The notes: generated by a model from the letters alone, not told the origin. A stretch of 33,827 nt of DNA from an uncultured Bacteriovoracaceae bacterium (GCA_964538275.1 CAZIFW010000026.1:1-33827); one strand, 5' to 3'. Positions 5,281 to 23,546 are shown, counted from the first letter of the stretch. Translations and numbers: made by a program.

Positions 5281-6111
5281 TTGTTACACACGGTGCATCA
5301 AGAAACGAGTCGAGACTTTTACTATAGGAAAAAACTTCATGAAAGTTTTGATCTAAGAAAGAAAAAACGCGCTGGCTATTCTTTGCGCGGCTTTGCTCGA
5401 GACCTCAATATCCTAGCACCCACTTTATCAAGTGTGATGAAGGGACATCGCACACTTCCTTTTGTGATGGCACTAAAAGTGAGTGATCGCTTAGAACTTG
5501 ATAAGACTTCGCGAGAGCAATTCCTTGAAAGTGTCATTGAAGAAAAAAAGCTTAGGCCACAGCGCAGACTTAAAAAAAGAGTTCTTCAAAAAGCATTGAG
5601 TCTTAAAGATGATCTACAAGAAGAGATTTTATCTACTCCGCTCTATTTTTCAGTGCTCAGTTTTTTACGTCTTGATATTCCTTCTAAAACACCAAAGGAC
5701 ATTGCGCGATTTTTTGGAATCACAGAAGTACGTGCAAGTTTTGTTGTTGAAAGGCTCTATCGAGTAGGAATGATTAAGTTTGAAAGAGGGCAATTAGCCC
5801 TGTCGGCAGAAGCTTTTAGGACTTCGGACGAAAAACCTTCATTGGCGATTCGTAATGCCCATAAAGAAACTTTAAAGCAGGCCGCTGACTCATTAGATAA
5901 TGTGCCACTCGAGATGCGAGATTTTTGTTCGCTTCGTGTACCACTTAATAAACGATCCATCGCAAAAGTTAAAAAAGAAGTGCGCTTAATGCTTGAGCGT
6001 GTTTATCAAATGTGTGCGTCAGATACAGACAAGGACGAGGTTTATGAATTTTCTGTACAATTTTTTCCACGAACGATTTTATCTACACAAAGAGGTAACT
6101 GTGAGAAGTAG
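5281..6111 (+). CDS. TIGR02147 / DUF4423-family protein (a paralogous family in Fibrobacter and Bdellovibrio) with an N-terminal HTH-like region.
   Basis: The N-terminus DFYYRKKLHESFDLRKKKRAGYSLRGFARDLNILAPTLSSVMKGHRTL matches the family hallmark Y..YL....K....FS.RAFA...G.S.GYLS.VL.GKR.L. The start codon is uncertain (TTG at 5281 or GTG at 5293). There is no in-frame ATG near the N-terminus. Confidence 0.55.
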   Translation: MLHTVHQETSRDFYYRKKLHESFDLRKKKRAGYSLRGFARDLNILAPTLSSVMKGHRTLPFVMALKVSDRLELDKTSREQFLESVIEEKKLRPQRRLKKRVLQKALSLKDDLQEEILSTPLYFSVLSFLRLDIPSKTPKDIARFFGITEVRASFVVERLYRVGMIKFERGQLALSAEAFRTSDEKPSLAIRNAHKETLKQAADSLDNVPLEMRDFCSLRVPLNKRSIAKVKKEVRLMLERVYQMCASDTDKDEVYEFSVQFFPRTILSTQRGNCEK

Positions 6112-6835
6112 CATTATTTTTACTTTTCTTTTTATAGCTTTATTTATGGCTGAAGCTCAGTCAGTAACAGGCAATGGAGGGAATGGGGATAGTCTCTATC
6201 GATATTATTCCGTTAAATACCTTAAAAAGTTAAAGCCTTTGTCTCCAGTTTTAAGCAACACTGTGGATTTTAACCTTGTTGTTTTTACTCCTGAACAATT
6301 ACTGGAGGTTGAATGGTTTCCAAGCTCCAAATTTTCCAATTTGAAAATTTGCGAGAACTTTTTTTCTGAGGCTTACAAAGGATGGCGTGAGTTTGTAGAG
6401 ATAAATCAAGTTTCTGGAGCCTTTGATCTTTCAAAGTTAAATGATTCAATGACTTTGGATCAATTAGTTTATTGGGATAATTTTTTAAAACAGGATTTTA
6501 GTTTTTTATGTTCAAATCAGAGGTTTTCAAGAGGCTTTGTAAGTAGTGTTTCCCAAGTGCCGTTTCTAGCAGCAAACTTTCAAAAAAAACTTAAAATTGT
6601 TTTAAATGATCTTTTTGTTCCTGTTGATAGTACTTTCTTCTGTGCAAGGTTTGCAGGGCAGGGTGATTTTTACAATGAATGCGATAACTTTTTCTTTAAG
6701 TCAATTGCTCTGCACGAAGTCTTAAGTTTGGTGCTTCCCAAATATGAAGGAAGCTATCGCTATGAGATAACATCTTATTATTTGAGTTATCGGGTTCATG
6801 AGGTAAACACTCCAAAGTTAGCCACTCTCAAATAA
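6101..6835 (+). CDS. Hypothetical secreted protein, probably co-transcribed with the TIGR02147-family gene.
   Basis: The ORF track opens this frame at 5993. A GTG at 6101 is preceded by AAAGAGG and starts a clean signal peptide (VRSSIIFTFLFIALFMAEA|QS). It overlaps the upstream stop by 11 nt. Confidence 0.45.
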   Translation: MRSSIIFTFLFIALFMAEAQSVTGNGGNGDSLYRYYSVKYLKKLKPLSPVLSNTVDFNLVVFTPEQLLEVEWFPSSKFSNLKICENFFSEAYKGWREFVEINQVSGAFDLSKLNDSMTLDQLVYWDNFLKQDFSFLCSNQRFSRGFVSSVSQVPFLAANFQKKLKIVLNDLFVPVDSTFFCARFAGQGDFYNECDNFFFKSIALHEVLSLVLPKYEGSYRYEITSYYLSYRVHEVNTPKLATLK

Positions 6836-11555: not shown

Positions 11556-12311
11556 TTGCTTTGCAGATTGTTGCGCACTCTTTGCCTAGATAGTTTTTCT
11601 TTTGTGGCTCTCGCTAAAAAAAGTCCTTTAACTGCTCTTTCAGATGCGCAGTTTTTAAAAAAAACTTCGGGCTGGATCGTAGGTTTGGATGAAGTGGGTG
11701 CTGGTTGTCTCTCGGGGCCTTTATGTGTGGCGGCTTTTGCGTTTCCAGTGGCGCATGCGGCCAATATAAATTTTCCAGTTCGTATAACGGATTCAAAAAA
11801 GCTCACTCCTGAAAAAAGAGTGGAAGCCGCAGAACTTTTAAAAGTCGTACCTGAGTGTTTTTACAAACTTTTGTGGCTCGATGTTGCTGAGATTGAAACT
11901 ATAAACATTTACTGGGCGCGAATGAAAGCTTTTTGGACTCTCATCCTAGAACTCGATGAGAAGTTTTCGAGTGAGGCTTTCTATTTTGTGGACGGGCCGA
12001 AATTGGGAATAAAACACGGAGTTACTCCTGCTGTTGATGCTCTTGAAATGATGGAAATTGAAAAAAGAATTTTAGCTCAATCCAAAGCAGATTCTAGTTT
12101 TTTTGCTGTGGCTGCTGCCTCTATTCTTGCCAAGGTAGCGCGCGATCAGCTGATTTCAGAAATGGCCTCAGAGTTTCCGCACTACAACTGGGAAAAAAAT
12201 AAAGGTTATGCAACACCAGATCACATTGAAGCCATTCGCTTGCACGGAATTTGCGAGCATCACCGTAAAACATTTTGTGGCAATTTTATTGGAGCTCAAG
12301 CTGAATTATGA
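11556..12311 (+). CDS. rnhB: Ribonuclease HII.
   Basis: The motif GLDEVGAGCLSGPLCVAAF matches the RNase HII catalytic N-terminal motif GxDEAGRGxLxGP. The true start is probably internal, e.g. the GTG near 11604, because the upstream part of the ORF has no homology-like features. Confidence 0.8.
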   Translation: MLCRLLRTLCLDSFSFVALAKKSPLTALSDAQFLKKTSGWIVGLDEVGAGCLSGPLCVAAFAFPVAHAANINFPVRITDSKKLTPEKRVEAAELLKVVPECFYKLLWLDVAEIETINIYWARMKAFWTLILELDEKFSSEAFYFVDGPKLGIKHGVTPAVDALEMMEIEKRILAQSKADSSFFAVAAASILAKVARDQLISEMASEFPHYNWEKNKGYATPDHIEAIRLHGICEHHRKTFCGNFIGAQAEL

Positions 12312-13447
12312 GACTTTCTCCCGTTGACCATGTCTTTACGGGAGCTGGAGCTTACCCGATTAACTTTTTATTTTTTTTTGAATCTTTAATTGATGAGCAC
12401 AAACTAAAAGCTTCTTTAGAGAAAACTTTGCAGTTTTTTTCTCCCGTCGGATCGCATTTAAAAAAGATGTCGGATGAAACTCTGGAATTCGATCAAAATT
12501 TTAAATTTGGTTGGAACGTTCAAGAAACTTTAACAGCTCCAGATATGTCTAATCTTAAAGATCTGCAGCGATATTTTAAAAGTGCCAAAAGTACAGTGGG
12601 TGAAAATCTATTAGAGGTGACGTTGAGTCACTTTCAAGGTCGTTCTGCTTTAGGGGTCAGTCTTTCTCATTGTGTAGTAGATGGTTATAGCTACTTTATG
12701 TTTTTAACCTCGTGGTCAAAAGCGATGAGGAATTTAGACTTTCATAAGCCTGATTTAGATCGCTTAAAATTAGTTCCTTTGGAAAAAGCTCCCTTCAATG
12801 AAGCTTCGGTATTTGAGGCAACGGGTTTTGCGTATTCGCAGCAAGCGCGTCCCGATGATTTAAATGATATTCGCTGGGAGCTTATTGATTACAGCGAAGA
12901 AGACCTTAAAAAGTTGTATTCAAATACGACGGCTCAAAGTGCACTTAGGCTTTCGATGAATGATGTTTTGTGTGCAGATCTTTGGAAGAAACTTGCGCGC
13001 AAATATCAAAAGTCCGGTGAAGAACTTACTTTGGCCTGTGCTTTTGATTACAGGCGGGTTTATCCAAAAATTGGACCTCTCTATTTTGGCAATGCAGTCA
13101 GGGGTGCTTCTTTTAAACTTAGTTATGATGAATTGATGAGCTCTACTAATGCACTTATTGCCGAAAAAATTGGAGGCGCAGTGCGATCTATCAATGAGGA
13201 AAAAGCTCTGGCTTCACTCCAGTACCTTGAATCTCTGCGTAATAAAAAAGGACTGGAATCCATGACTCATTTTCATGTAGCAGATCCTCAAACGGGTTTT
13301 TTAATGACAAATCTTTCACGCTTACCTTTGTTGGAACTTGATTTTGGCGCAGGCGCGCCAGTAGATTTTAGAATATTAACTCCTGCGAGAAGAACGGCTG
13401 TTATTCTGCCCCTCGCAAACGGTTTAAGAATTCAAATTGCTCATTAG
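12308..13447 (+). CDS. HxxxDG-motif acyltransferase of the wax-ester-synthase / condensation-domain superfamily (WS/DGAT-like).
   Basis: The N-terminus MRLSPVDHVF resembles the WS/DGAT start (M.PLSPxDxxF). A catalytic-type motif SHCVVDG (HxxxDG) is present. Its ATG overlaps the rnhB stop as ATGA, implying translational coupling. At 379 aa it is shorter than classical WS/DGAT. Confidence 0.5.
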   Translation: MRLSPVDHVFTGAGAYPINFLFFFESLIDEHKLKASLEKTLQFFSPVGSHLKKMSDETLEFDQNFKFGWNVQETLTAPDMSNLKDLQRYFKSAKSTVGENLLEVTLSHFQGRSALGVSLSHCVVDGYSYFMFLTSWSKAMRNLDFHKPDLDRLKLVPLEKAPFNEASVFEATGFAYSQQARPDDLNDIRWELIDYSEEDLKKLYSNTTAQSALRLSMNDVLCADLWKKLARKYQKSGEELTLACAFDYRRVYPKIGPLYFGNAVRGASFKLSYDELMSSTNALIAEKIGGAVRSINEEKALASLQYLESLRNKKGLESMTHFHVADPQTGFLMTNLSRLPLLELDFGAGAPVDFRILTPARRTAVILPLANGLRIQIAH

Positions 13448-13985: not shown

Positions 13986-14873
13986 ATGAGAAAAAAATTA
14001 TTAAACGGAAGTCTATTAACATTCGCTTTAGTCGCTTCTCCGAGCTTGCGCGCTGAAGAGTCAATGGTTGATAAAGGTCAAAGAAAATTTAATAGCGCAG
14101 TGGATTCGGCTCAGAATGCAGTTGAATCGGGCGTAAACAACGTAAAAACTTTGTATAATAAAGTTCACAATCTTAAAATGCCTGAAGTAGAAATGAGCTC
14201 TGAGGGAGAGCGTCTACTTATGGGTGGAGCACCTGTAGGTGAAGGCAGTGGATCACTCAAGGCATGGGAAGCAGAAACAAAGGCAGTTGTTAAAGCAGGA
14301 TTTTCACTCAAGCTTGCTTTGCTTCTTTACGGTAGAGACAATGCTGACGCTAAGTCACTTTTAAAAATGAATGAACAACTTATGGCTCTTGAAGCAGATC
14401 GATTGAAGCTTGCGGGAACTGTAGATCAGCTTGGTGATCTTGAAACTAAAGTCATGTTCGATTCTGAGTTAAAGCAATATGTTCCTAAAGTTGAAGGTCT
14501 AGATAAAGCAGAACTTGCTAAGTTGAAGCAAATAAACGAAGTAGGTGAAAAATTTAGAAGTATTGAAGCAAGAAAAGTAGATTTAATTGCATCGATTTCT
14601 CAGAAAACGGAAACACTTCAAGTGAAGCTGCAAAATAATCGTATCTGGGCGCTTAAGGGAAGCATAGGCCCTGATGGTAACCTTACTCCAGCTGGTCTTG
14701 AAATTATTAAGTCTAACGGTGCACGCTGGTCGAAAGCCTTTGGTGGCTTAGGCGTTGCGATGACTACTTTAGAATTAGGCGTTGATACCTTCAACGTATT
14801 TCAAAACAAAGAAAGTCCTGGCTTAATTCCTATGCAGTCGACTGTAGAATTAGTGAAAGCACAAGTTAAGTAA
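13986..14873 (+). CDS. Hypothetical secreted protein (295 aa) with predicted coiled-coil.
   Basis: A signal peptide is present (MRKKLLNGSLLTFALVASPSLRA|EES). It has no recognisable family motif. Confidence 0.5.
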   Translation: MRKKLLNGSLLTFALVASPSLRAEESMVDKGQRKFNSAVDSAQNAVESGVNNVKTLYNKVHNLKMPEVEMSSEGERLLMGGAPVGEGSGSLKAWEAETKAVVKAGFSLKLALLLYGRDNADAKSLLKMNEQLMALEADRLKLAGTVDQLGDLETKVMFDSELKQYVPKVEGLDKAELAKLKQINEVGEKFRSIEARKVDLIASISQKTETLQVKLQNNRIWALKGSIGPDGNLTPAGLEIIKSNGARWSKAFGGLGVAMTTLELGVDTFNVFQNKESPGLIPMQSTVELVKAQVK

Positions 14874-14903
14874 AGGTTTTCGAAAAGAAAGTTAGGGGGT
14901 CGC

Positions 14904-16268
14904 TTGAGAAAAAATCTTAAAAGATTTTCTCTTGAGCGGCCTCTTCTGTTTTTTGTCTGTATATTTCTTTTTGTTGGCTCTATTGAAGCAAAAAGTTGTC
15001 TTAGTAAATTGAATTGCAGTTCTGCGTTTAACGATGCATGTATTTATACCTATGTGAAAGCAAATCAGTTGTTGAATACGCGCCTTGCTATAGAGCTCAC
15101 TACATTAACAAGAGAAAGTGCGCCAGCGTCGGGTGGGTGGGGTTCCAAGCCACACGTCTCGGGATTGGGAACAAGTTATCAACCCGGCACGGGTGCCCTT
15201 GCGCAAAGTATCCCTATTTTTCGACGTTTTGTAGAAAGAAACAATGGACGATGGACTCCGTTTACTTGGAAAAGCAAAGACGGCACTCGTTTTGACTTCG
15301 ATCCCATTCAGGGAATCTATCAAAAAATCCAGCATCGAATGAATCCAGAAAAGCCTCGTGAATTTACAATGCTTGCTTCCATACTGAATCCCATAGATGG
15401 AACGCGTTTGAGTCTTTATACTCTTACGGCCGCAGTTTTAGGTGGTTCTAGAATGTTAATCGAACACCAAGACGAAGAATCACTTGAGGAGGCTCTTGAT
15501 TGGTATCCTTTCTTAGAGGGAATGAAGCAAGAGCGTGAAAAGCTAGAAAAAGTTTTTGGCGATACAAAAAAATTCAAAAGCTTGGAAGCTGAAATTATAA
15601 AAGACGTTGCGCTTTCGCCTTCGCAATATGATGAAATGATGAGGCCGTATGAAGGCGTTGAGCCAGATTATTCTGCTCTTGCGATAAAATTAGAAAAAGA
15701 ACTTTCCCTGTTAGATTTAAAGGATTTGACCATTTACGAAAAACAATTTGCGCAAATGGCCTATCTCTTAAAAGTAGATAGCGTGTCTCTGGGACTCAAC
15801 CTGAGAGAAAAGAAGGCCTTGGAGCTTCTTCGCTTTGGAATGAGTCGACCTTCGTTTTTCAAACTTAAAAGTATACTTTTTAGCGATGTCTTAACTTACA
15901 AAAAGGCAGGATTTGCGCTCGATAGCAGCGCCGCTTTAGGAGCTGCATCGGCGAATTGGTCGAAGGGTGAGTCCTATCTCCCTAGTTTCGCAGATGCAGC
16001 GGTTTTATCTTTGCTGGGTGAAACTACAAAGGACTTGGTTGAAAAAAATAGAGCTATTCTTCAAGTAAACTCTGAATCAGGACAACAAAGAACGCGAGCA
16101 GCTTGGATTGCTCTTAAAAAAATAGAACTAGATTTTGAGCGACGAAGTTTCGAAAAAATGGGACTTGTTCCTATCATACGAGATAAAGCCAGCGGTGAAC
16201 TTAGGCCCCTTAGTGATGAAGAACACGACGAGATAGAAGCACAAGCTTTGCTCAAAGCACCCCACTAA
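14904..16268 (+). CDS. Hypothetical secreted protein (454 aa).
   Basis: TTG start preceded by AGGGGGT. A signal peptide is present (LLFFVCIFLFVGSIEA|KS). A Cys pair near the N-terminus is reminiscent of the LprI/DUF1311 family, but the match is weak. Confidence 0.45.
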   Translation: MRKNLKRFSLERPLLFFVCIFLFVGSIEAKSCLSKLNCSSAFNDACIYTYVKANQLLNTRLAIELTTLTRESAPASGGWGSKPHVSGLGTSYQPGTGALAQSIPIFRRFVERNNGRWTPFTWKSKDGTRFDFDPIQGIYQKIQHRMNPEKPREFTMLASILNPIDGTRLSLYTLTAAVLGGSRMLIEHQDEESLEEALDWYPFLEGMKQEREKLEKVFGDTKKFKSLEAEIIKDVALSPSQYDEMMRPYEGVEPDYSALAIKLEKELSLLDLKDLTIYEKQFAQMAYLLKVDSVSLGLNLREKKALELLRFGMSRPSFFKLKSILFSDVLTYKKAGFALDSSAALGAASANWSKGESYLPSFADAAVLSLLGETTKDLVEKNRAILQVNSESGQQRTRAAWIALKKIELDFERRSFEKMGLVPIIRDKASGELRPLSDEEHDEIEAQALLKAPH

Positions 16269-16419
16269 GTAATTCTCTAATATAGACTACGGCATGAATT
16301 TGTCGCTTTATTAAGAGCGTCTAGTTTTTAGACGTAACTTTTAATGAAATTGAGCTTTGTCGCTTCTTATTAACACAATCTTAATCATAGCTTTTCAAAA
16401 ACCCGTCGATAATTAAGGC

Positions 16420-19400
16420 ATGGGTAATTTCTCGAGATCCTTTATATATTCTTGTGCATTTTTTGCATTAACTTTAAATGTTGCGTGTACAAAGAAAATA
16501 AAAAAAGCCGCAACGGGACTTACAAATTTAGGACCCACCTCAAACCTAACGTGTATATTTGTTCCAAATTTTAATACCTTTGATGGGGAATCTTTCATTC
16601 AAGGTTTTCCCAATGGCGACCCTTCTTACGAAGTAAACTATTCATGTTCAAAAAACGGTCAGCCCGTTGCAGAAGCTGAATGTCGTAACCCAGCGACAAC
16701 AAGCACTGCAGCCTCGCAGCCCTATACCACTTGTCCTGGCGAAGGAACTTTTATTGTTGCTCAGAATAGTCCATCAGGGATTTATAATATTGCTGTAAAA
16801 GGTAAAGATCCCGAAAATGGTCTATTGAGTGATGCTTATGTTTATAATTTCGCAATTGATCGTGATGCTCCCTATGTAACGGATAACGTTATTGTCCTTT
16901 CAAAGAGTACAAATTCTTTTTCTATAAGTTTTGTAGCTATAGATCCGGAGAGTCCCTCTGCTCCAAATAGTGGAGTTAAAACCACAGAATGTTTGGTTCA
17001 TACTTCTGCTAGTTTGCCCTCAAATCCTGTGTGGCAAAGCTGTAATCCTTCCCAATATGCGGCAACAAATTTAGCTGCTGATACTCAATACTGGGTGCAT
17101 TTTAAGGTTGAAGATAAAGCGGGTAATTTGAGTTTTGATTCGCCAGCGGGAGTTCAGTCTTTTGCTGTTAAAACAAATGTAGATCCAGGAACAACAAACG
17201 GCGGAGGAACGGGACCAGGTTCTCCAGGCGTATGTACTATTCTTTCAAGCTTTCCCAATGGATTCACGCATGATTCAGCTATCAACATCTCTTACGAATG
17301 TCCTAACAACCAGTTAGTTAATAAATGTGTACTTTATAGCCCAGGTCAAACGGTAGCTTCTAATTCAGGCGACCCAGAAAGTGGTTTTCAGAATTGTGAT
17401 GAAACTGCATTTCAGCGCACTATCAGTGTAGATGGTGGCTATCAGTTCTGTGTAGCAGACGGTGCAGCCGGTCCTGTGCGTTGCCAAAGTTTTAGACGTG
17501 ATACAGCAGCGCCTACTGTTGCGATTAATACTCATAATATTACTGCAACGAGTGCAGTTGTTGAGTTTAGTGGCACAGATAGTGGAAGCGGCATCTCTCG
17601 CTTTACCTGTGCGCTTTTAAGGCGTGATGCAAATCCTGCAAATGAAATTGTGTATGATGCTGTTGGAAACATAGCTCCAAGTATAGGGGCTGCATTGGAT
17701 AACGTGTCTGTACCCTGTGGTGCTATTAGTGTGAGCCAAACTTCGGTTACTTTTGGTAGCAGTGTTATTGCCCCAGGAGTTGAGTACGCATTTTATGTAA
17801 GATCTTATGACAACACAGGTTTGAATTCTCCTACGGTCAATCAAACTCTTGTTCAAAGAGGAGCAGATATCTCGTGTGTGATTCTCAATAAAAAGAATGG
17901 TGCATGGAAAAATTCAAGTGCTCAAAGTTATGAATATGAGTGTTCGCAAAACAGTGTGGGTAACGTAAACTTTAAGTGTCAGCTTGAAAATGCTGCAGGA
18001 GGAACGACTCTTGATCTAGCTTGTAACAATCAAGCTCCGCAGTGTTATGCCACTACGAATGAACCTTCGACGGGAACTCTATGTGTTTACCGTGGTAGTT
18101 TTGAAACAGGCGCACGCACAAGCCCATTTGTAGCTTCAGGAGACACCCTTCGCGTAAGAGTGATTGCTGAAGATCGTGCAACATCTGGATTGGTTGTGAG
18201 TTCGGACACTGAAGAAGATACTTTTAAAGTAGATACTCAAAATCCGTTGCTTCCAAATATCAATGTTACTTCTAGCTCTGAAGAAGTGCAGTTAAGTTTC
18301 TCTGCAAATGACCCTCATGCTCCAGCCAGAGGAAGTGGTTTGCGTCCAAATTTAGGAATCAAACTCTATGAAGTGAGTGGAAACACGATTGTACAAGAGC
18401 TTACAGACTACGATGTACAGCTTTTGTGTTCAGGTACTGTTGTAGATCCAAATAACTTCGATATTCGAAATAATTGTAACGATCTTCGTTTTGGTCCTAG
18501 AAACTTTAACGTCGCAAAAATGTACAGAGTTGACTTAACAGTTTTTGACCAAGTCGATAATACTTCAACGGCTTCTTCTTTGTCTTTCCCTGGGCCTAAC
18601 CCAAGTGAGGGGCCTACTTGTTCCATTGGTTTGATCAGTGGATTCTCTGTTGATCCCAACAATCCTACAAATGCTGCAACAACTCTTTCGCGCATTGCTT
18701 GTAACAATCCGCATGAAGAAGCAGGAGTTGAGGATGAGCATACGACAATCGTGAGATGTCGAAAAACAAATCGCGATATAAACGGCAACCCGGTAATTGG
18801 AACTTGGTTTAATTGTGCAGGTTCAAATTTAACTCTTGCAAATGGTGCAACAACTGATTGGAACGTTGTTAACACTGGATTGCCAAACGGAGAAGTTAAA
18901 CTCGAAGTTCAAGGTTGTGATTCAACCTACACGTATCGTTGTGGTCCCATTTCAAGCATGAGCTATTACTATGGTAATGCGCGTGATGGTGGTTGGAGTA
19001 CTGCACAAACAGTTTATCTAAATGGTGATTCACAAACTCAGTATTCTAGAAAAGTTTGTAACAACCCTTCGCCTCTCGCAGGAGGAACCCCTTGTGAACG
19101 TGAGAGAGAACCGTGTCCATCTGTGGTGGGCGCGATTTGCTATGACTGGTTCATGGGACCAGATGTAGATACTTACAAAGCTCAGTATCTAAAACTTAAG
19201 TCGTGTAAGGATCCTGCTGACTTTATTTTTGATAATACCCAAGCGAAGTGTGTTCCAGTCAATCCGCCTGTAGATGGGGTGTGGAGTGATTGGAGTGATT
19301 GGGTAAGTCAGGGTTCATGTTCAGTAACGTGTGGAGGTGGAACACTTTCACAAACACGCACTCGTCAGTGTAATAACCCTGCACCTTCAAATGGCGGAAA

Positions 19401-21153
19401 TCAGTGTTCGGGTGCAAGTACTGAAACTCAAAATATTGCTTGCAACACTCAAAGTTGCACAGGAACTCCCGGTTCTTGGGTTTGGGGTCCTGTATACGCA
19501 GCACCAGCAGATTCTATTTATAATGAACGCAGACGTTGCTCGAATGGAACTCTCTGTGACAATATTTCAGGATGGCATCATTTTAATTCCGGTGGAATTA
19601 AATACGCTCATCGTTGCGTAAGAGGCGGTATACCTATGGGCTCTGGCAGTGCATACACGTGTCGTCCTCCAGTGGGTCGCATTCCAAGTGGTGAATTGTG
19701 TAGTTCAGATGCGGCTATTATTTCTAGAGGCGCACGCGGTTCAATAGCTGGAAAAACTCGTTACACTCAAATTCGCAATGCGGGCGCACCCATTCCAGAA
19801 TGGAGAAACCCATTCTACTCAAATGGAACGGGTATAAATTTGGCAAGTGATGCTCCCACAAGAAAAGTAGCTTGTTTGATGAATGGATATAACGACATTG
19901 TCAGCTATGTGGGCAAACGTTGGGATTCTCCTCAAAACAATGCCGTTCTACTTTGGAAGAATGCAGATAAGAATTTTGATAGAATCAGAGGTTCTGAATT
20001 TAACAACTGGTTAAGCTCAGGCACGTGTGGTGGAAGACTTCACAAAAACTGTGTGGATTATCCATTATGGATTTTCAGAGACACGCCTCCTAATCCCGAT
20101 CCCGTACCTAGAATTGACGGTGGTTGGTCTGCGTGGAGTGATTGGACTTCAGCAAGCGCATGCACGGGCGCATGTGGCGCAGCAACTCGAACTGAACAAA
20201 GAACTCGAACATGTACAGCTCCCGCACCTTCGGGTGGTGGCAGTCCATGTTCAGGACCTGCTGTAGAATCTAGAGCGGCTTCGTGTACTCCAAGCGGATG
20301 TGTTGCTTGTAGTGGAGTGTCTGAATTTACTTTACAAAGAGGATCTTCAAATCCTGTGTATGCAGTGACGGCTGAAATTCCTGCAACAGCTCCACTTGCT
20401 CAGGCGCAACAAGTGACTGTGTCATTAGCAACTTATGAAGGTGCAGATGACATTCGTTTATCAGCTTATGTGAGTGGGGCATGGGCCGATATCTTCGCTC
20501 CAGGAAAAATTAGCACCTGGACGAACGGAGATCCTACAAATGGAACGACTCCTCCGCCTGCTAGTACAATAAGAACATTTACAGCCATGATTCCTCAAGG
20601 AGCAGAAAAAGTTAAATTAGATGCGTCTCGTGCAAGAACACAGTTCTACTTAAAAGTAAGTGGGCTTTGTGGATTCAATGTGGCATCTGCTGTTGTGGCC
20701 AACTCTGCCGTCAATGGTGAATGGTCTGATTGGACAAGCTGGGCAAATATAACGGCTTGTAGCAAATCTTGTGGGGGCGGAACAGTTACTCAAAGTCGCT
20801 CTCGAGTTTGTAACAATCCCATACCTTCTAACGGGGGTGCAAATTGTACAGGATCAGCGACAGAAACTCAGGTTGTAGCTTGTAATACGCAAGCCTGTTG
20901 TAAGCCTAACGGAACGATTGTGGGTCGTGGAGATGTACCAGGCAATCTAAGTCGTGATGAAGTTACCTGTGGCAGGAGTCCTTCTAGTAGAAAAGTAAAT
21001 GGTGGCTCTGCAGGAGCTAATTCTCAGTGTTGCAGTGGCAGAGCGGTTTACAAAAACGGAAGTCGAGCAAGTCGTTGTGGCAATAGTTGTAGTTGGTGTG
21101 GAAGCAACGGTGGATACGATTACGACAACTGGGAAATTGTTTGCTCAAATTAG
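16420..21153 (+). CDS. Giant secreted or lipoprotein (1577 aa), probably an adhesin: fibronectin-III/Ig-like modules, three or four thrombospondin type-1 repeats, and a Cys-rich C-terminus with an RGD motif.
   Basis: The N-terminus has a signal/lipobox-like ALTLNVAC. Three modules begin D-x-D/T-A-P (DRDAPYV, RRDTAAPTV, KVDTQNPLL) and end ...D.AGN.S. Three thrombospondin repeats match WSxWSxW..CSxTCGGG...R.R.CNNP.PSNGG..C.G...E...C...C at nt ~19270-19460, 20116-20300 and 20713-20898. A degenerate fourth sits at ~19010-19130. GRGDVPG sits at ~20925-20945. Confidence 0.7.
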   Translation: MGNFSRSFIYSCAFFALTLNVACTKKIKKAATGLTNLGPTSNLTCIFVPNFNTFDGESFIQGFPNGDPSYEVNYSCSKNGQPVAEAECRNPATTSTAASQPYTTCPGEGTFIVAQNSPSGIYNIAVKGKDPENGLLSDAYVYNFAIDRDAPYVTDNVIVLSKSTNSFSISFVAIDPESPSAPNSGVKTTECLVHTSASLPSNPVWQSCNPSQYAATNLAADTQYWVHFKVEDKAGNLSFDSPAGVQSFAVKTNVDPGTTNGGGTGPGSPGVCTILSSFPNGFTHDSAINISYECPNNQLVNKCVLYSPGQTVASNSGDPESGFQNCDETAFQRTISVDGGYQFCVADGAAGPVRCQSFRRDTAAPTVAINTHNITATSAVVEFSGTDSGSGISRFTCALLRRDANPANEIVYDAVGNIAPSIGAALDNVSVPCGAISVSQTSVTFGSSVIAPGVEYAFYVRSYDNTGLNSPTVNQTLVQRGADISCVILNKKNGAWKNSSAQSYEYECSQNSVGNVNFKCQLENAAGGTTLDLACNNQAPQCYATTNEPSTGTLCVYRGSFETGARTSPFVASGDTLRVRVIAEDRATSGLVVSSDTEEDTFKVDTQNPLLPNINVTSSSEEVQLSFSANDPHAPARGSGLRPNLGIKLYEVSGNTIVQELTDYDVQLLCSGTVVDPNNFDIRNNCNDLRFGPRNFNVAKMYRVDLTVFDQVDNTSTASSLSFPGPNPSEGPTCSIGLISGFSVDPNNPTNAATTLSRIACNNPHEEAGVEDEHTTIVRCRKTNRDINGNPVIGTWFNCAGSNLTLANGATTDWNVVNTGLPNGEVKLEVQGCDSTYTYRCGPISSMSYYYGNARDGGWSTAQTVYLNGDSQTQYSRKVCNNPSPLAGGTPCEREREPCPSVVGAICYDWFMGPDVDTYKAQYLKLKSCKDPADFIFDNTQAKCVPVNPPVDGVWSDWSDWVSQGSCSVTCGGGTLSQTRTRQCNNPAPSNGGNQCSGASTETQNIACNTQSCTGTPGSWVWGPVYAAPADSIYNERRRCSNGTLCDNISGWHHFNSGGIKYAHRCVRGGIPMGSGSAYTCRPPVGRIPSGELCSSDAAIISRGARGSIAGKTRYTQIRNAGAPIPEWRNPFYSNGTGINLASDAPTRKVACLMNGYNDIVSYVGKRWDSPQNNAVLLWKNADKNFDRIRGSEFNNWLSSGTCGGRLHKNCVDYPLWIFRDTPPNPDPVPRIDGGWSAWSDWTSASACTGACGAATRTEQRTRTCTAPAPSGGGSPCSGPAVESRAASCTPSGCVACSGVSEFTLQRGSSNPVYAVTAEIPATAPLAQAQQVTVSLATYEGADDIRLSAYVSGAWADIFAPGKISTWTNGDPTNGTTPPPASTIRTFTAMIPQGAEKVKLDASRARTQFYLKVSGLCGFNVASAVVANSAVNGEWSDWTSWANITACSKSCGGGTVTQSRSRVCNNPIPSNGGANCTGSATETQVVACNTQACCKPNGTIVGRGDVPGNLSRDEVTCGRSPSSRKVNGGSAGANSQCCSGRAVYKNGSRASRCGNSCSWCGSNGGYDYDNWEIVCSN

Positions 21154-21161
21154 CATTGATA

Positions 21162-21200
21162 AAAGCTACTTTGGAATAGAATTTATTCTGAGGTAGCTTT
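21162..21200. terminator. Compound hairpin between or overlapping convergent gene ends, a possible bidirectional terminator.
   Basis: AAAGCTAC...GTAGCTTT forms an 8-bp outer stem enclosing GAATA-GAATT-TATTC. It overlaps the last codons of the minus-strand gene. Confidence 0.3.
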
Positions 21201-23546
21201 AGAAATTTGATCCAGTCTTTTTATTTCTTCTTTTAAGTTTTCAAATTCCGTGAAAGGCAATGCACCACGATCAAGAAAACGAATTTTTTTATTTTTGTCG
21301 ATCACATAGGTGCCGTGAAGGGGCAGTTCTTCGAAGTCGTCGAAAGATCTATATTTTTTAAATACATTCATTTGACTATCACTTAAGAGATCAAATTTTA
21401 GCCGAGTTTCTTCAGTAGAAAATTCAAGAGCTGTTGCAAGATCGCTTTCAGAATCTGTAGTGATTCCAACTATTTTATATCCAAGCTTTTGAAAACGTTC
21501 GCTTTGAGCATTTAATTCCTGAAGTTGTTCATTACAACGTGGACAGGAACCACCTAATACAAAAACTAAAAGCACACCTTTATTAGATTCTTTTAAAATT
21601 GAGTCGAGTGAGAGTGTTTTAGCAGCGGCATTCTTGAGGATAAAGTCGGGCGCTAAAGGTTGTGGAAATTTTTCTCCAGTAAAAGAAGTGGGTACTTTGA
21701 GTAAGAGTTCTCTTGGAGTGTGAACGGCTCTCCAGTCGTTTGGTATACTCTCGCCCAAGAGTTTCAATACTTCTTCTCCAAGTTTATAATATTCGGAGTT
21801 TTTGTCTAAATATGCACCCATAGTGCGACATTTTTTAAAGGTTTCAAAGGCAGCTTCTTGCTTGAGTTGCGAAGCTTGTGCGTGCGCAAGCTCTAAATAT
21901 TTTGAAATATCAGCATAGGGATCAGAACTTAAGTCTCCTAAAACTTCTTCTGCTTTTTCTGGAAGATTAAGTGTTCGGTAAAATTTTGCAAAGGTTGAAC
22001 GAGATAATATGTAATCAGCGTCTTGGTTAAGTTTACGCAATTCTTCGACATTCTCGGGTGATTCTTCGCCATTTTCCCAGCGTTTTATAAGATCTAGGAT
22101 TTTTTCGAGTTTAGCAGCTTGAGGTGCAAGCGAAGGGTTTTGAGATGCAAGATCATGCAACAGGACTCGATACTTAAAGCGCTCTACATCTTCGCCCACA
22201 ACAGTATAGCTATAAGCAAGTTGGTAAAAAAGTTTAAGGATGCGGATTTTATCTTTAAACTTACGAGCATCCGTAGGGAGATATCCTTGTTTTTCTGCTT
22301 CAACTAAAATTTCATGATTTCCATACGTGTTTGCAGTGGTAAACAGCAGATCAAGGCCAGCGATGTAATTTGAGTGATAAGTGCCCTCTTGCTCTAAAGG
22401 GTTGTTGTATTTGGAGTGAAGGGGGATTTCTAAGAGACCTTTTGCGACTTGTGCAGATTTTTTATATTTCCCAAGTCCAAGAAGATTGAGGCCCCAAAAA
22501 TGTTGATTGTGTCCATAATTATGAACCACGTAGGGAAATTCCATTTGTTTGTTTTGTTGTGTTTGATCAATGTATGCTGCACGCAAATATTGTTCATCAC
22601 TTTCGAAAAACTTCCCTATTTGTGAGTAAATGTGTGATCCCATGTGCCACATGTGAGCCGAGTTTATAAAAGAAGGTCCAATGTGTTGTGCTGAATCCAA
22701 TGCACGTTTTTCATTTTTACTATCGTTCCACAAGTGGATACGAGCATGGTGGGCGGGATGCATGGGTTCTTTTTCAAAAATTTCTTGAAAAAGTTTTTCT
22801 ATTTTTTCTTGTGTATATCCTAGATTTTCTATGTGACCTAGATCCCAGATAAAGAGCGCGCCCAGTGCTTTGAGATCAAGCTCATTCGGATTTTCTTCTA
22901 CAAGTTGAAGCCACGCTTTAACAAAAAACTTTTGATTCTCGGAATCTTCGGGATTTTTTAAAAAACTCAGTAAAATATTCTGTAAACGTATTTCGAGCTT
23001 ACTAAGTTTTAAATTGAGGTGACGAGTGAGTTCGATGGAGAGTTTTGTGAACTTGTATCCACGTTCATAGTTTCCAACGCCAAAAATAATCTGCGAAAGA
23101 CCCGCACCCCAAAGGGCCATAGTGCAATTGGAATCTTGGTGAAAAGCGAGGCGAAAATATCTTTCGGCCTCAACAGTTTCAAATGCGTGCATGTAGGCAA
23201 AAGCAAAATTTATGGATTTTAAAGCATCAGCGTTGCAAGATTGAATGGGGCTTTTGAGGGAGACGGTTAACGGAGGGAGATTGAGTGGGAATTGGCGAGG
23301 TCCGTAATCAAAAACTTGCCCGCGTTTTGAGGCTCCGGGGTGGGAGGCTTCATTTTTCAAGTAGGCGGCAAGTACATCTTCTCTTGCGTCTCCGCTTTCT
23401 TTGCTCATGGCGCTCATGCCGCCATTGCTTCCACCCATAGAGGGCATATTTGCGGCTTCGTGACCCTCGTGAGAGGGGCCACAAGAAACTAAAAAGAGAA
23501 CAAGAATTGTTGTAAGTAATTTAGGAAATGCACCGGAATTGAACAC
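21183..23546 (-). CDS. Lipoprotein (787 aa) with a Met/His-rich N-terminal segment and a C-terminal thioredoxin-fold (redoxin / AhpC-TSA / TlpA-like) domain carrying a CPRC motif.
   Basis: GTG start. A lipobox is present (LVLFLVSC). MPSMGGSNGGMSAMS resembles a metal-binding Met motif. The C-terminus reads VLLVFVLGGSCPRCNEQLQEL...IVGITTDSESDL...HGTYVIDKNKKIRFLD, which looks like a redoxin fold. Confidence 0.55.
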   Translation of the reverse strand: MFNSGAFPKLLTTILVLFLVSCGPSHEGHEAANMPSMGGSNGGMSAMSKESGDAREDVLAAYLKNEASHPGASKRGQVFDYGPRQFPLNLPPLTVSLKSPIQSCNADALKSINFAFAYMHAFETVEAERYFRLAFHQDSNCTMALWGAGLSQIIFGVGNYERGYKFTKLSIELTRHLNLKLSKLEIRLQNILLSFLKNPEDSENQKFFVKAWLQLVEENPNELDLKALGALFIWDLGHIENLGYTQEKIEKLFQEIFEKEPMHPAHHARIHLWNDSKNEKRALDSAQHIGPSFINSAHMWHMGSHIYSQIGKFFESDEQYLRAAYIDQTQQNKQMEFPYVVHNYGHNQHFWGLNLLGLGKYKKSAQVAKGLLEIPLHSKYNNPLEQEGTYHSNYIAGLDLLFTTANTYGNHEILVEAEKQGYLPTDARKFKDKIRILKLFYQLAYSYTVVGEDVERFKYRVLLHDLASQNPSLAPQAAKLEKILDLIKRWENGEESPENVEELRKLNQDADYILSRSTFAKFYRTLNLPEKAEEVLGDLSSDPYADISKYLELAHAQASQLKQEAAFETFKKCRTMGAYLDKNSEYYKLGEEVLKLLGESIPNDWRAVHTPRELLLKVPTSFTGEKFPQPLAPDFILKNAAAKTLSLDSILKESNKGVLLVFVLGGSCPRCNEQLQELNAQSERFQKLGYKIVGITTDSESDLATALEFSTEETRLKFDLLSDSQMNVFKKYRSFDDFEELPLHGTYVIDKNKKIRFLDRGALPFTEFENLKEEIKRLDQISKATSE

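Follow-up and report, generated by a model that had tools for sequence, protein, structure and literature searches.

A lineage-variable envelope island in Bdellovibrionota with a thrombospondin-repeat lipoprotein and a CxxC lipoprotein of a widespread family

We analyzed a 33,827-nt stretch of DNA (hereafter the window) from an uncultured Bacteriovoracaceae bacterium (GCA_964538275.1, CAZIFW010000026.1:1-33827), in which four genes at positions 13986-23546 encode proteins of 295, 454, 1577 and 787 amino acids (aa). The best explanation of this region is that it is a lineage-variable cell-envelope island of a Bdellovibrionota chromosome, placed between two conserved housekeeping blocks. Its cargo would be of three kinds, independent of one another: first, two secreted orphans (295 and 454 aa) that evolve fast; second, a surface lipoprotein of 1577 aa that is lineage-specific and rich in disulfides, probably an adhesin and called so below, with Ig/Fn3-like modules, three canonical and one degenerate thrombospondin type-1 repeats (TSRs) and a Cys-rich tail; and third, convergent to it, a 787-aa lipoprotein of a large exported two-domain family, referred to as the redoxin lipoprotein. 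The family of this last protein is widespread and uncharacterised, and joins a His-rich TPR-like domain to a rebuilt peroxiredoxin. On balance, we favor the view that the redoxin lipoprotein carries out thiol-disulfide exchange as a general factor of the periplasm, with a solenoid that holds a client or a metal/cofactor, the adhesin being maybe one client. An earlier note on this DNA had instead proposed that the four genes form a functional unit in which the redoxin protein is dedicated to the adhesin, a role that we consider unlikely on the evidence given below. The coordinates of all features are collected in Table 1.

Table 1. Features of the four-gene region, in window coordinates
Feature	Position	Strand	Basis or content
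295-aa secreted orphan	13986-14873	+	Open reading frame; signal-peptide heuristic
454-aa secreted orphan	14904-16268	+	Open reading frame, TTG start, AGGGGG ribosome-binding site
Three overlapping terminator-like hairpins	16290-16335	+	Consensus scan only; in the 151-bp gap before the adhesin gene
1577-aa Cys-rich surface lipoprotein (adhesin)	16420-21153	+	Open reading frame
Degenerate TSR-like module, near residue 857 (GGWS...CNNPSP..GG..C)	18988-19149	+	Homologue alignment
TSR1, canonical six-Cys, CSVTCG	19276-19458	+	Pfam, residues 956-1013
TSR2, canonical six-Cys, most divergent of the three	20119-20301	+	Trp/Cys motif, alignment
TSR3, canonical six-Cys	20716-20898	+	Trp/Cys motif, alignment
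84-aa Cys-rich tail with CC, CC and CSWC	20899-21150	+	Cys count
787-aa lipoprotein: TPR-like His-rich N-domain and peroxiredoxin-fold CxxC domain	21183-23546	-	Open reading frame
Peroxiredoxin-fold (AhpC/TSA) domain, residues 630-787	21186-21659	-	Pfam, AlphaFold2 model
His744, within PLHG	21315-21317	-	Catalytic Arg position of peroxiredoxins
CPRC, Cys668/Cys671	21534-21545	-	Alignments to 2cx3 and 2ywn; coordinates checked
His/Trp/Asn core of the N-domain, residues 261-347	22506-22766	-	PMHPxHHxxIHLW, AHMWHMxxH, D327, P338, HNYxHN

The island and its gene order in relatives

The four open reading frames (ORFs) and their strands are exactly those that the earlier note had described, with gaps of 30, 151 and 29 bp in order. 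All four N-termini show a positive charge followed by a hydrophobic stretch, as judged by a signal-peptide heuristic, and the same heuristic detects no membrane-spanning-like segment beyond the N-terminus in any of the four proteins. The signal peptides previously assigned to the three co-oriented genes are thus borne out at the level of this heuristic, and the 30- and 151-bp gaps between them by the ORF coordinates.

According to its Pfam content, the upstream flank of the block comprises ffh, a DUF4423 gene, trmD, rplS, rnhB, a BAHD-type transferase gene and yraN, and the downstream flank a DJ-1/PfpI gene, yceD, fabH, fabD, fabG and fabF. This yraN...DJ-1 backbone recurs in three related loci (L001, L002 and L003) with differing cargo between the flanks, which makes the block a variable island amid housekeeping genes. 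The base composition of the island (0.38-0.47 GC) lies inside the range of the window. An origin as a mobile element or phage was considered and set aside, given that there are no integrase or phage matches and no tRNA; Rfam and tRNA scans of the window returned no matches.

We then compared the gene order in relatives. The 295- and 454-aa genes are found only in L001, so that the four-gene functional unit fails the synteny check, and as a finding such a unit is weak and of modest interest. For the pair formed by the adhesin and redoxin genes, only about four independent lineages are informative on adjacency. L001 (83-86% identity) and L085 (~80%) keep the arrangement, yet as close relatives they tell us little. 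One deep lineage, L002, preserves the pair; there the redoxin and adhesin are 45% and 44% identical to ours and the two genes are convergent, 8 bp apart. The pair is broken in at least two other lineages. In L003, the adhesin (59% identical, 67 Cys) retains its TSRs and there is no redoxin gene at the locus, where the adhesin gene is followed by four unrelated genes, none of them with a CxxC. A GspN-like gene lies upstream of the L086 redoxin gene (product 41% identical), and the redoxin gene of L092 lies among housekeeping neighbors. The neighbors of the L004 redoxin gene are likewise unrelated, and the L091 contig, which ends just past the redoxin gene, is uninformative on adjacency. The adhesin of L002 measures 918 aa, with 31 Cys and no canonical TSR. 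Redoxin presence therefore does not track TSRs, since L002 has the redoxin without a canonical TSR and L003 has TSRs without the redoxin. As a side observation, the gene downstream of the L086 redoxin gene, on the same strand (L086:4039-4593, +), encodes a Cys-containing lipoprotein that matches DUF1554 (Pfam E=3.8e-38), and hence the redoxin has a different secreted neighbor there.

The 787-aa family and its active site

The earlier note was right in calling the 787-aa protein a lipoprotein: its lipobox reads LVSC, and Cys22 is kept in the clade. What needs correction is that the 1577-aa protein is a probable lipoprotein as well (see below). An AlphaFold2 model of the 787-aa protein (pLDDT 87.2, pTM 0.85) is all-helical over residues 48-596 and adopts a thioredoxin-type fold over residues ~630-787, in agreement with a Pfam AhpC/TSA match to the C terminus (E=7.6e-24, residues 632-757). 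The convergent lipoprotein gene thus does encode a thioredoxin-fold C terminus with a CPRC at residues 668-671, as had been claimed, and the fold is of the peroxiredoxin type.

The active site, by comparison with known peroxiredoxins, has been rebuilt. Residue-level alignments to 2cx3 and 2ywn place Cys671 at the peroxidatic Cys and Cys668 at the catalytic Thr/Ser, while His744 aligns with the catalytic Arg of 2ywn, 6p0w and 1zof. All three residues are invariant in 95 of 95 family sequences, as is Leu664, which stands in place of the Pro of the PxxxT/SxxC motif; both this motif and the catalytic Arg are absent from the redoxin domain throughout the 95-sequence alignment. With Cys668 and His744 in place of the catalytic Thr and Arg, the domain is not a competent canonical peroxiredoxin, and its residues identify it as a CxxC...His variant of the peroxiredoxin fold. 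In the AlphaFold2 model, the CPRC directly precedes the helix formed by residues 669-687, such that the protein combines extracytoplasmic anchoring with a CxxC at a helix start. The WCxxC and cis-Pro signatures of TlpA/ResA are both absent: the sequence reads GGSCPRC, and it is His744, not Pro, that stands before the TYVID strand, at a position (that of the peroxiredoxin Arg) which we take to be equivalent to the thioredoxin cis-Pro position. Neither ccdA nor dsbD is present within the 33.8-kb window.

These substitutions bear on one alternative, namely a C-terminal domain that acts as an ordinary thiol peroxidase and detoxifies peroxides in the envelope. The fold is indeed that of a peroxiredoxin, but neither the PxxxTxxC motif nor the catalytic Arg is retained, and every NCBIfam peroxiredoxin model scores far under its cut-off on the 787-aa protein. 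Among other NCBIfam models, SelL_rel_redox reaches 31.4 bits against a cut-off of 120, and ResA gives a weak match (E=1.8e-8). An ordinary peroxiredoxin identity was rejected on the active-site residues, and we consider a peroxidase function very improbable. The outcome that the earlier note had named as fatal to its own proposal, a domain that is merely a peroxiredoxin, does not apply either, the catalytic Thr and Arg being replaced.

The N-domain contains conserved blocks as well. An alignment of 15 homologues already indicated that the N-terminal ~550 residues are more than TPR filler, and the 95-sequence alignment delimits blocks that are 93-100% conserved. They begin with an N-terminal motif (G71, S73, G76, F79, G82, P83 and R84), continue with E126, E128, R129, F131 and R132, then W146 and G147, and culminate in the core, which comprises P261, H263, P264, H266, H267, H271 and W273; A297, H298, W300, H301, M302 and H305; and D327, P338, H342, N343, H346 and N347. 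In the C-domain, the positions conserved to the same degree are C668, C671, Q674, F729, D736, D737, F738, E739, L743, H744, P764, E774 and R777. The His/Met/Trp/Asn core is found in 95 of 95 members, across Planctomycetota, Verrucomicrobiota, Chthonomonadales and Bdellovibrionota. Its histidines are spaced i, i+3/4, i+7/8 along three successive helices, so that each helix shows one His-rich face. Neither a Pfam model nor a solved structure covers this core, which, from its residues, looks like a metal/cofactor site or a catalytic groove.

Such a core raises the possibility that the 787-aa protein is a metal or cofactor handler (copper, iron or haem), acting through its His solenoid and a Cys-Cys-His site, and unrelated to the adhesin. 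About ten invariant histidines, together with Met302, Trp273 and Trp300, follow the above spacing on the three helices; Cys668, Cys671 and His744 occupy positions that touch in peroxiredoxin active sites; and the invariant acidic DDFE (residues 736-739) lies ahead of His744 and adjoins it. On the other hand, no known metal-site motif was returned by Pfam, NCBIfam or PDB sequence searches, and the Cys pair is CxxC rather than CxxxC. We regard a metal handler as possible but rather doubtful.

The family is widespread. In a scan of one genome per species, full-length relatives (residues ~70-780, 26-30% identity) occur in at least 583 species genomes, nearly all of them Planctomycetota, Verrucomicrobiota or Chthonomonadales. 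A profile-free search with the N-domain alone against 1.84 billion representative proteins (clusters at 50% identity) recovered 1197 clusters at E<=1e-3, most of them 700-870 aa long. Among ten of these proteins scanned, an AhpC/TSA domain follows the N-domain in all five that are full-length-sized and in two of the remaining, shorter five (531-826 aa). Some members (P0055, P0057 and P0124) have an extra C-terminal NHL beta-propeller, peptidase S51 or second thioredoxin-like domain, which may be clues to function. Searching metagenomes with patterns from the Bdellovibrionota redoxin clade brought up only three distant relatives, of Planctomycetota/Verrucomicrobiota type, and a literature search on TPR-plus-AhpC/TSA CxxC proteins found nothing specific.

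We surveyed 81 loci of the PVC group (Planctomycetota, Verrucomicrobiota and allies), in which the commonest neighbor family is present at 8 loci at most. The few recurrent families appear to be PSCyt/PSD1, as beside the L004 redoxin gene; families of this type are abundant in these phyla. A hidden Markov model built from the TSRs had no match in the 81 loci, and Cys-rich ORFs show no excess near the gene (36 of 482 close to it vs. 52 of 693 further away). The lack of any conserved or TSR-bearing neighbor, and of an excess of Cys-rich ones, indicates that the protein is a stand-alone general envelope component in most hosts.

The data show the gene content, the identity of the domains, the substitutions in the active site, the breadth of the family and the synteny pattern. 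Based on them, we propose the following model for the 787-aa protein, in which its biochemical activity and any client relationship are inferred. The TPR-like solenoid would present the invariant His/Trp/Asn stripes on three consecutive helices, and the ligand held in its groove would be an extended polypeptide or else a metal/cofactor. The CxxC domain would perform thiol-disulfide exchange, by reduction or isomerisation, on envelope clients generally, and in this lineage the neighboring adhesin could be one of them.

The adhesin, its possible link to the redoxin lipoprotein, and the remaining genes

The adhesin consists of a lipobox (Cys23), an Ig/Fn3-like region extending to residue ~850, a TSR-bearing C-terminal half and the Cys-rich tail. 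A search of 5.8 billion proteins turned up no more than five homologues, the nearest named one being from a Bdellovibrionota metagenome-assembled genome, and metagenome searches by patterns from the adhesin alignment yielded no further relative. Its NVAC lipobox is atypical at -3; nonetheless, Cys23 and the [TS]KK behind it are present without exception in the five homologues, which is why we consider the protein a probable lipoprotein. With 72 Cys (4.6%), 70 of which lie beyond the lipobox, it is the sole Cys-rich member of the three co-oriented proteins, the orphans having zero and four. The description of a Cys-rich protein with six-Cys TSRs and a CC/CxxC-laden tail hence proved correct, the tail containing two CC and a CSWC; a further CVAC sits at the TSR2 boundary, outside the tail. 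In the five-homologue alignment, 28 Cys are among the invariant columns, and many of these fall within the N-terminal ~850 residues, where Pfam and NCBIfam give Ig/Fn3-like hints with weak Big_3_2 and OmpL47 matches. An AlphaFold2 model of residues 850-1577, built with five sequences, was unusable (pLDDT 50, pTM 0.27).

The identity of the repeats is clear. The Pfam TSP_1 model scores 48 bits on the adhesin against a cut-off of 21.6 (E=1.4e-12), and each of the three canonical TSRs, whose Trp motifs begin at residues 955, 1236 and 1435, displays the WxxWxxW, CSxTCG and RxR ladder along with six Cys in ~60 residues. TSR1 retrieves human thrombospondin-1 (TSP-1) from the PDB by phmmer with E=4.5e-25, and 33 of 57 aligned residues (58%), CSVTCG included, are identical to TSR3 of human TSP-1. 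The third adhesin repeat is kept in P0018 and P0019, and is identical to TSP-1 at 31 of 56 aligned positions. The degenerate TSR-like module is kept in every homologue, including the 918-aa P0021. A bacterial lipoprotein with near-canonical TSP-1-like TSRs is rare, and a literature search on bacterial or Bdellovibrio TSRs found nothing specific. Two side observations concern this protein. The near-TSP-1 sequence of TSR1 suggests horizontal acquisition from a eukaryote. In addition, the tail contains an RGD (residues 1503-1505; positions 20926-20934, + strand), which is replaced by GSGD at the same place in P0019 and is probably not a conserved integrin-type motif.

In TSRs, the three disulfides of each repeat are non-consecutive, and non-consecutive disulfides formed in the periplasm usually need an isomerase; a need for isomerisation is therefore chemically plausible. 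One can envisage that the redoxin is a dedicated oxidoreductase/isomerase kept beside the adhesin for its ~35 disulfides, the non-consecutive ones of the TSRs included. The convergent adjacency of the two genes in the window, L001, L085 and the ~45% identical L002 is in line with this idea, as are the 70 Cys of the adhesin beyond its lipobox and the 31 Cys of the L002 adhesin, which remains Cys-rich, the presence of a CxxC where the peroxidase residues are gone, and a TPR-like domain that could hold an unfolded client. In contrast, the L003 island has a TSR adhesin with 67 Cys and neither a redoxin nor a CxxC gene, the redoxins of L086 and L092 occur without an adhesin, and redoxin presence follows TSR presence in neither L002 nor L003. 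Besides, the two genes are convergent, which precludes co-transcription. Because the family is present in at least 583 genomes and has no conserved or TSR neighbor and no excess of Cys-rich ones in the 81 loci surveyed, we judge a dedicated role unlikely. What stands of the earlier proposal is an extracytoplasmic thiol-type CxxC protein, the adjacency to the adhesin gene kept in L002 and the plausibility of a need for an isomerase; dedication to the adhesin is not supported, given L003, L086, L092 and the breadth of the family.

A few observations weigh against reading the redoxin lipoprotein as a general exchange protein for which the adhesin is at most one client. The ~ten invariant histidines may make the N-domain a metal centre instead of a groove that binds clients. 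The L002 pair stays adjacent despite gene insertions on either side, which hints at some selection for linkage. L003 comes from a metagenome-assembled genome, such that the absence of the redoxin holds for the locus only. Finally, in JGI sample 3300050046, the adhesin homologue P0020 abuts a convergent 52-aa fragment at a contig end, and the redoxin homologue P0004 lies on another contig of the same sample; the P0020 locus may thus be a further case of adhesin/redoxin adjacency. A narrower scenario combines both genes: a member of the 787-aa class would have been recruited in one Bdellovibrionota lineage to fold or isomerise an adhesin whose TSRs came from a eukaryote. We consider this quite improbable; if true, bacteria would here have found a way to fold an animal-type adhesion module in their periplasm. 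Taken together, a general periplasmic exchange protein remains the reading that we favor for the redoxin lipoprotein.

The two orphan genes follow a different course. The sole orthologue of the 295-aa protein, which is rich in Leu, Lys, Ala and Glu and devoid of Cys, is in L001 (69% identity), and the gene is absent from L002 and L003. The 454-aa protein, which contains four Cys, likewise has an orthologue in L001 (73% identity), where the TTG start and the AGGGGG ribosome-binding site are kept, and none in L002 or L003; a search of 5.8 billion proteins matched only itself and this orthologue. Neither protein matched anything in Pfam, NCBIfam, PHROGs, PADLOC or PDB sequence searches. Compared with the 83-93% identity of their neighbors to L001, values of 69% and 73% show that the orphans evolve faster. 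The two genes probably form their own short transcription unit, and the hairpins in the 151-bp gap, as weak evidence, suggest that this pair and the adhesin gene may be separate transcripts.

Outside the four genes, a 379-aa gene between rnhB and yraN (12308-13447, + strand) matches PF02458, "Transferase family" (E=2.6e-27), which we take to represent BAHD-type acyltransferases, known chiefly from plants and fungi; the HCVVDG of this ORF would presumably be the HxxxD motif. The gene is kept in L001 (79% identity), an Acyl_transf_3 gene is found instead in L002, and it is absent in L003. It constitutes a second eukaryote-typical domain near the TSR gene. Further upstream, two ORFs on the + strand, at 5281-6111 and 5993-6835, overlap by ~120 bp; the first encodes the DUF4423 protein, and the TTG start of the second is probably mis-set in the mechanical ORF list. 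A 155-aa antisense ORF within the adhesin gene (18408-18875, - strand) has no support as a gene and is most likely spurious.

Significance and comparison with known systems

The 787-aa protein and its relatives are very common in the envelope of Planctomycetota and Verrucomicrobiota, and establishing their function would provide the annotation for them. The TSR lipoprotein, for its part, raises the questions of where its repeats originate, possibly by horizontal transfer, and of how three non-consecutive disulfides per repeat form in the periplasm.

Several known systems resemble parts of this island. The adhesin repeats share the WxxWxxW, CSxTCG and RxR motifs and the six Cys with the TSRs of thrombospondin-1, properdin and apicomplexan TRAP-type proteins, and differ from TSP-1 by small insertions of 3, 2 and 2 residues. 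Unlike the metazoan and apicomplexan TSRs, they are found in a bacterial lipoprotein with Ig-like modules, which folds in the periplasm without the glycosylation-based quality control of the endoplasmic reticulum. Fixing non-consecutive disulfides, the role that the earlier note proposed for the redoxin, is that of the isomerases DsbC and ScsC; the redoxin, in contrast, has neither a DsbC/DsbG-type dimerisation domain nor a DsbA-like helical insertion, and its fold class is that of peroxiredoxins and TlpA.

Similar to TlpA, ResA and CcmG, the 787-aa protein is membrane-anchored and extracytoplasmic, with a CxxC at the N terminus of the first helix of the domain. It departs from them by having SCPRC and not WCxxC and an invariant His at the cis-Pro position; moreover, unlike TlpA-type proteins, its redoxin domain is nearer to peroxiredoxins in sequence and fold, and it carries the ~550-aa His-rich TPR-like domain. 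The best sequence and fold matches of the redoxin domain are BCP/PrxQ peroxiredoxins, with Cys671 at the peroxidatic position. We presume, from the CDD description, that in PRX-like2 proteins (e.g., PRXL2B, a prostaglandin F synthase) the second Cys of the CxxC is the peroxidatic equivalent and the other triad residues are lacking. The CPRC pattern fits this PRX-like2/SelL-related description, with the SelL_rel_redox score staying below its cut-off as given above. In contrast to BCP/PrxQ and PRX-like2, the 787-aa protein is exported and carries a lipid anchor, its redoxin domain is preceded by a large solenoid, and Cys and His stand in place of Thr and Arg. Sco proteins use a CxxxC and a His as a metal site; the redoxin has a CxxC instead of the CxxxC with distal His of these copper chaperones.

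By analogy, the combination of a thioredoxin-fold module with a TPR-type client module may be compared with the chaperedoxin CnoX (YbbN), and with CcmI (TPR) together with CcmG/CcmH in cytochrome c maturation; one module could grip a client while the other exchanges its thiols. CnoX is, however, cytoplasmic, has the opposite domain order and shows no detected sequence relationship to the 787-aa protein, and the His-rich core of the latter has no counterpart in either CnoX or CcmI/CcmG/CcmH.

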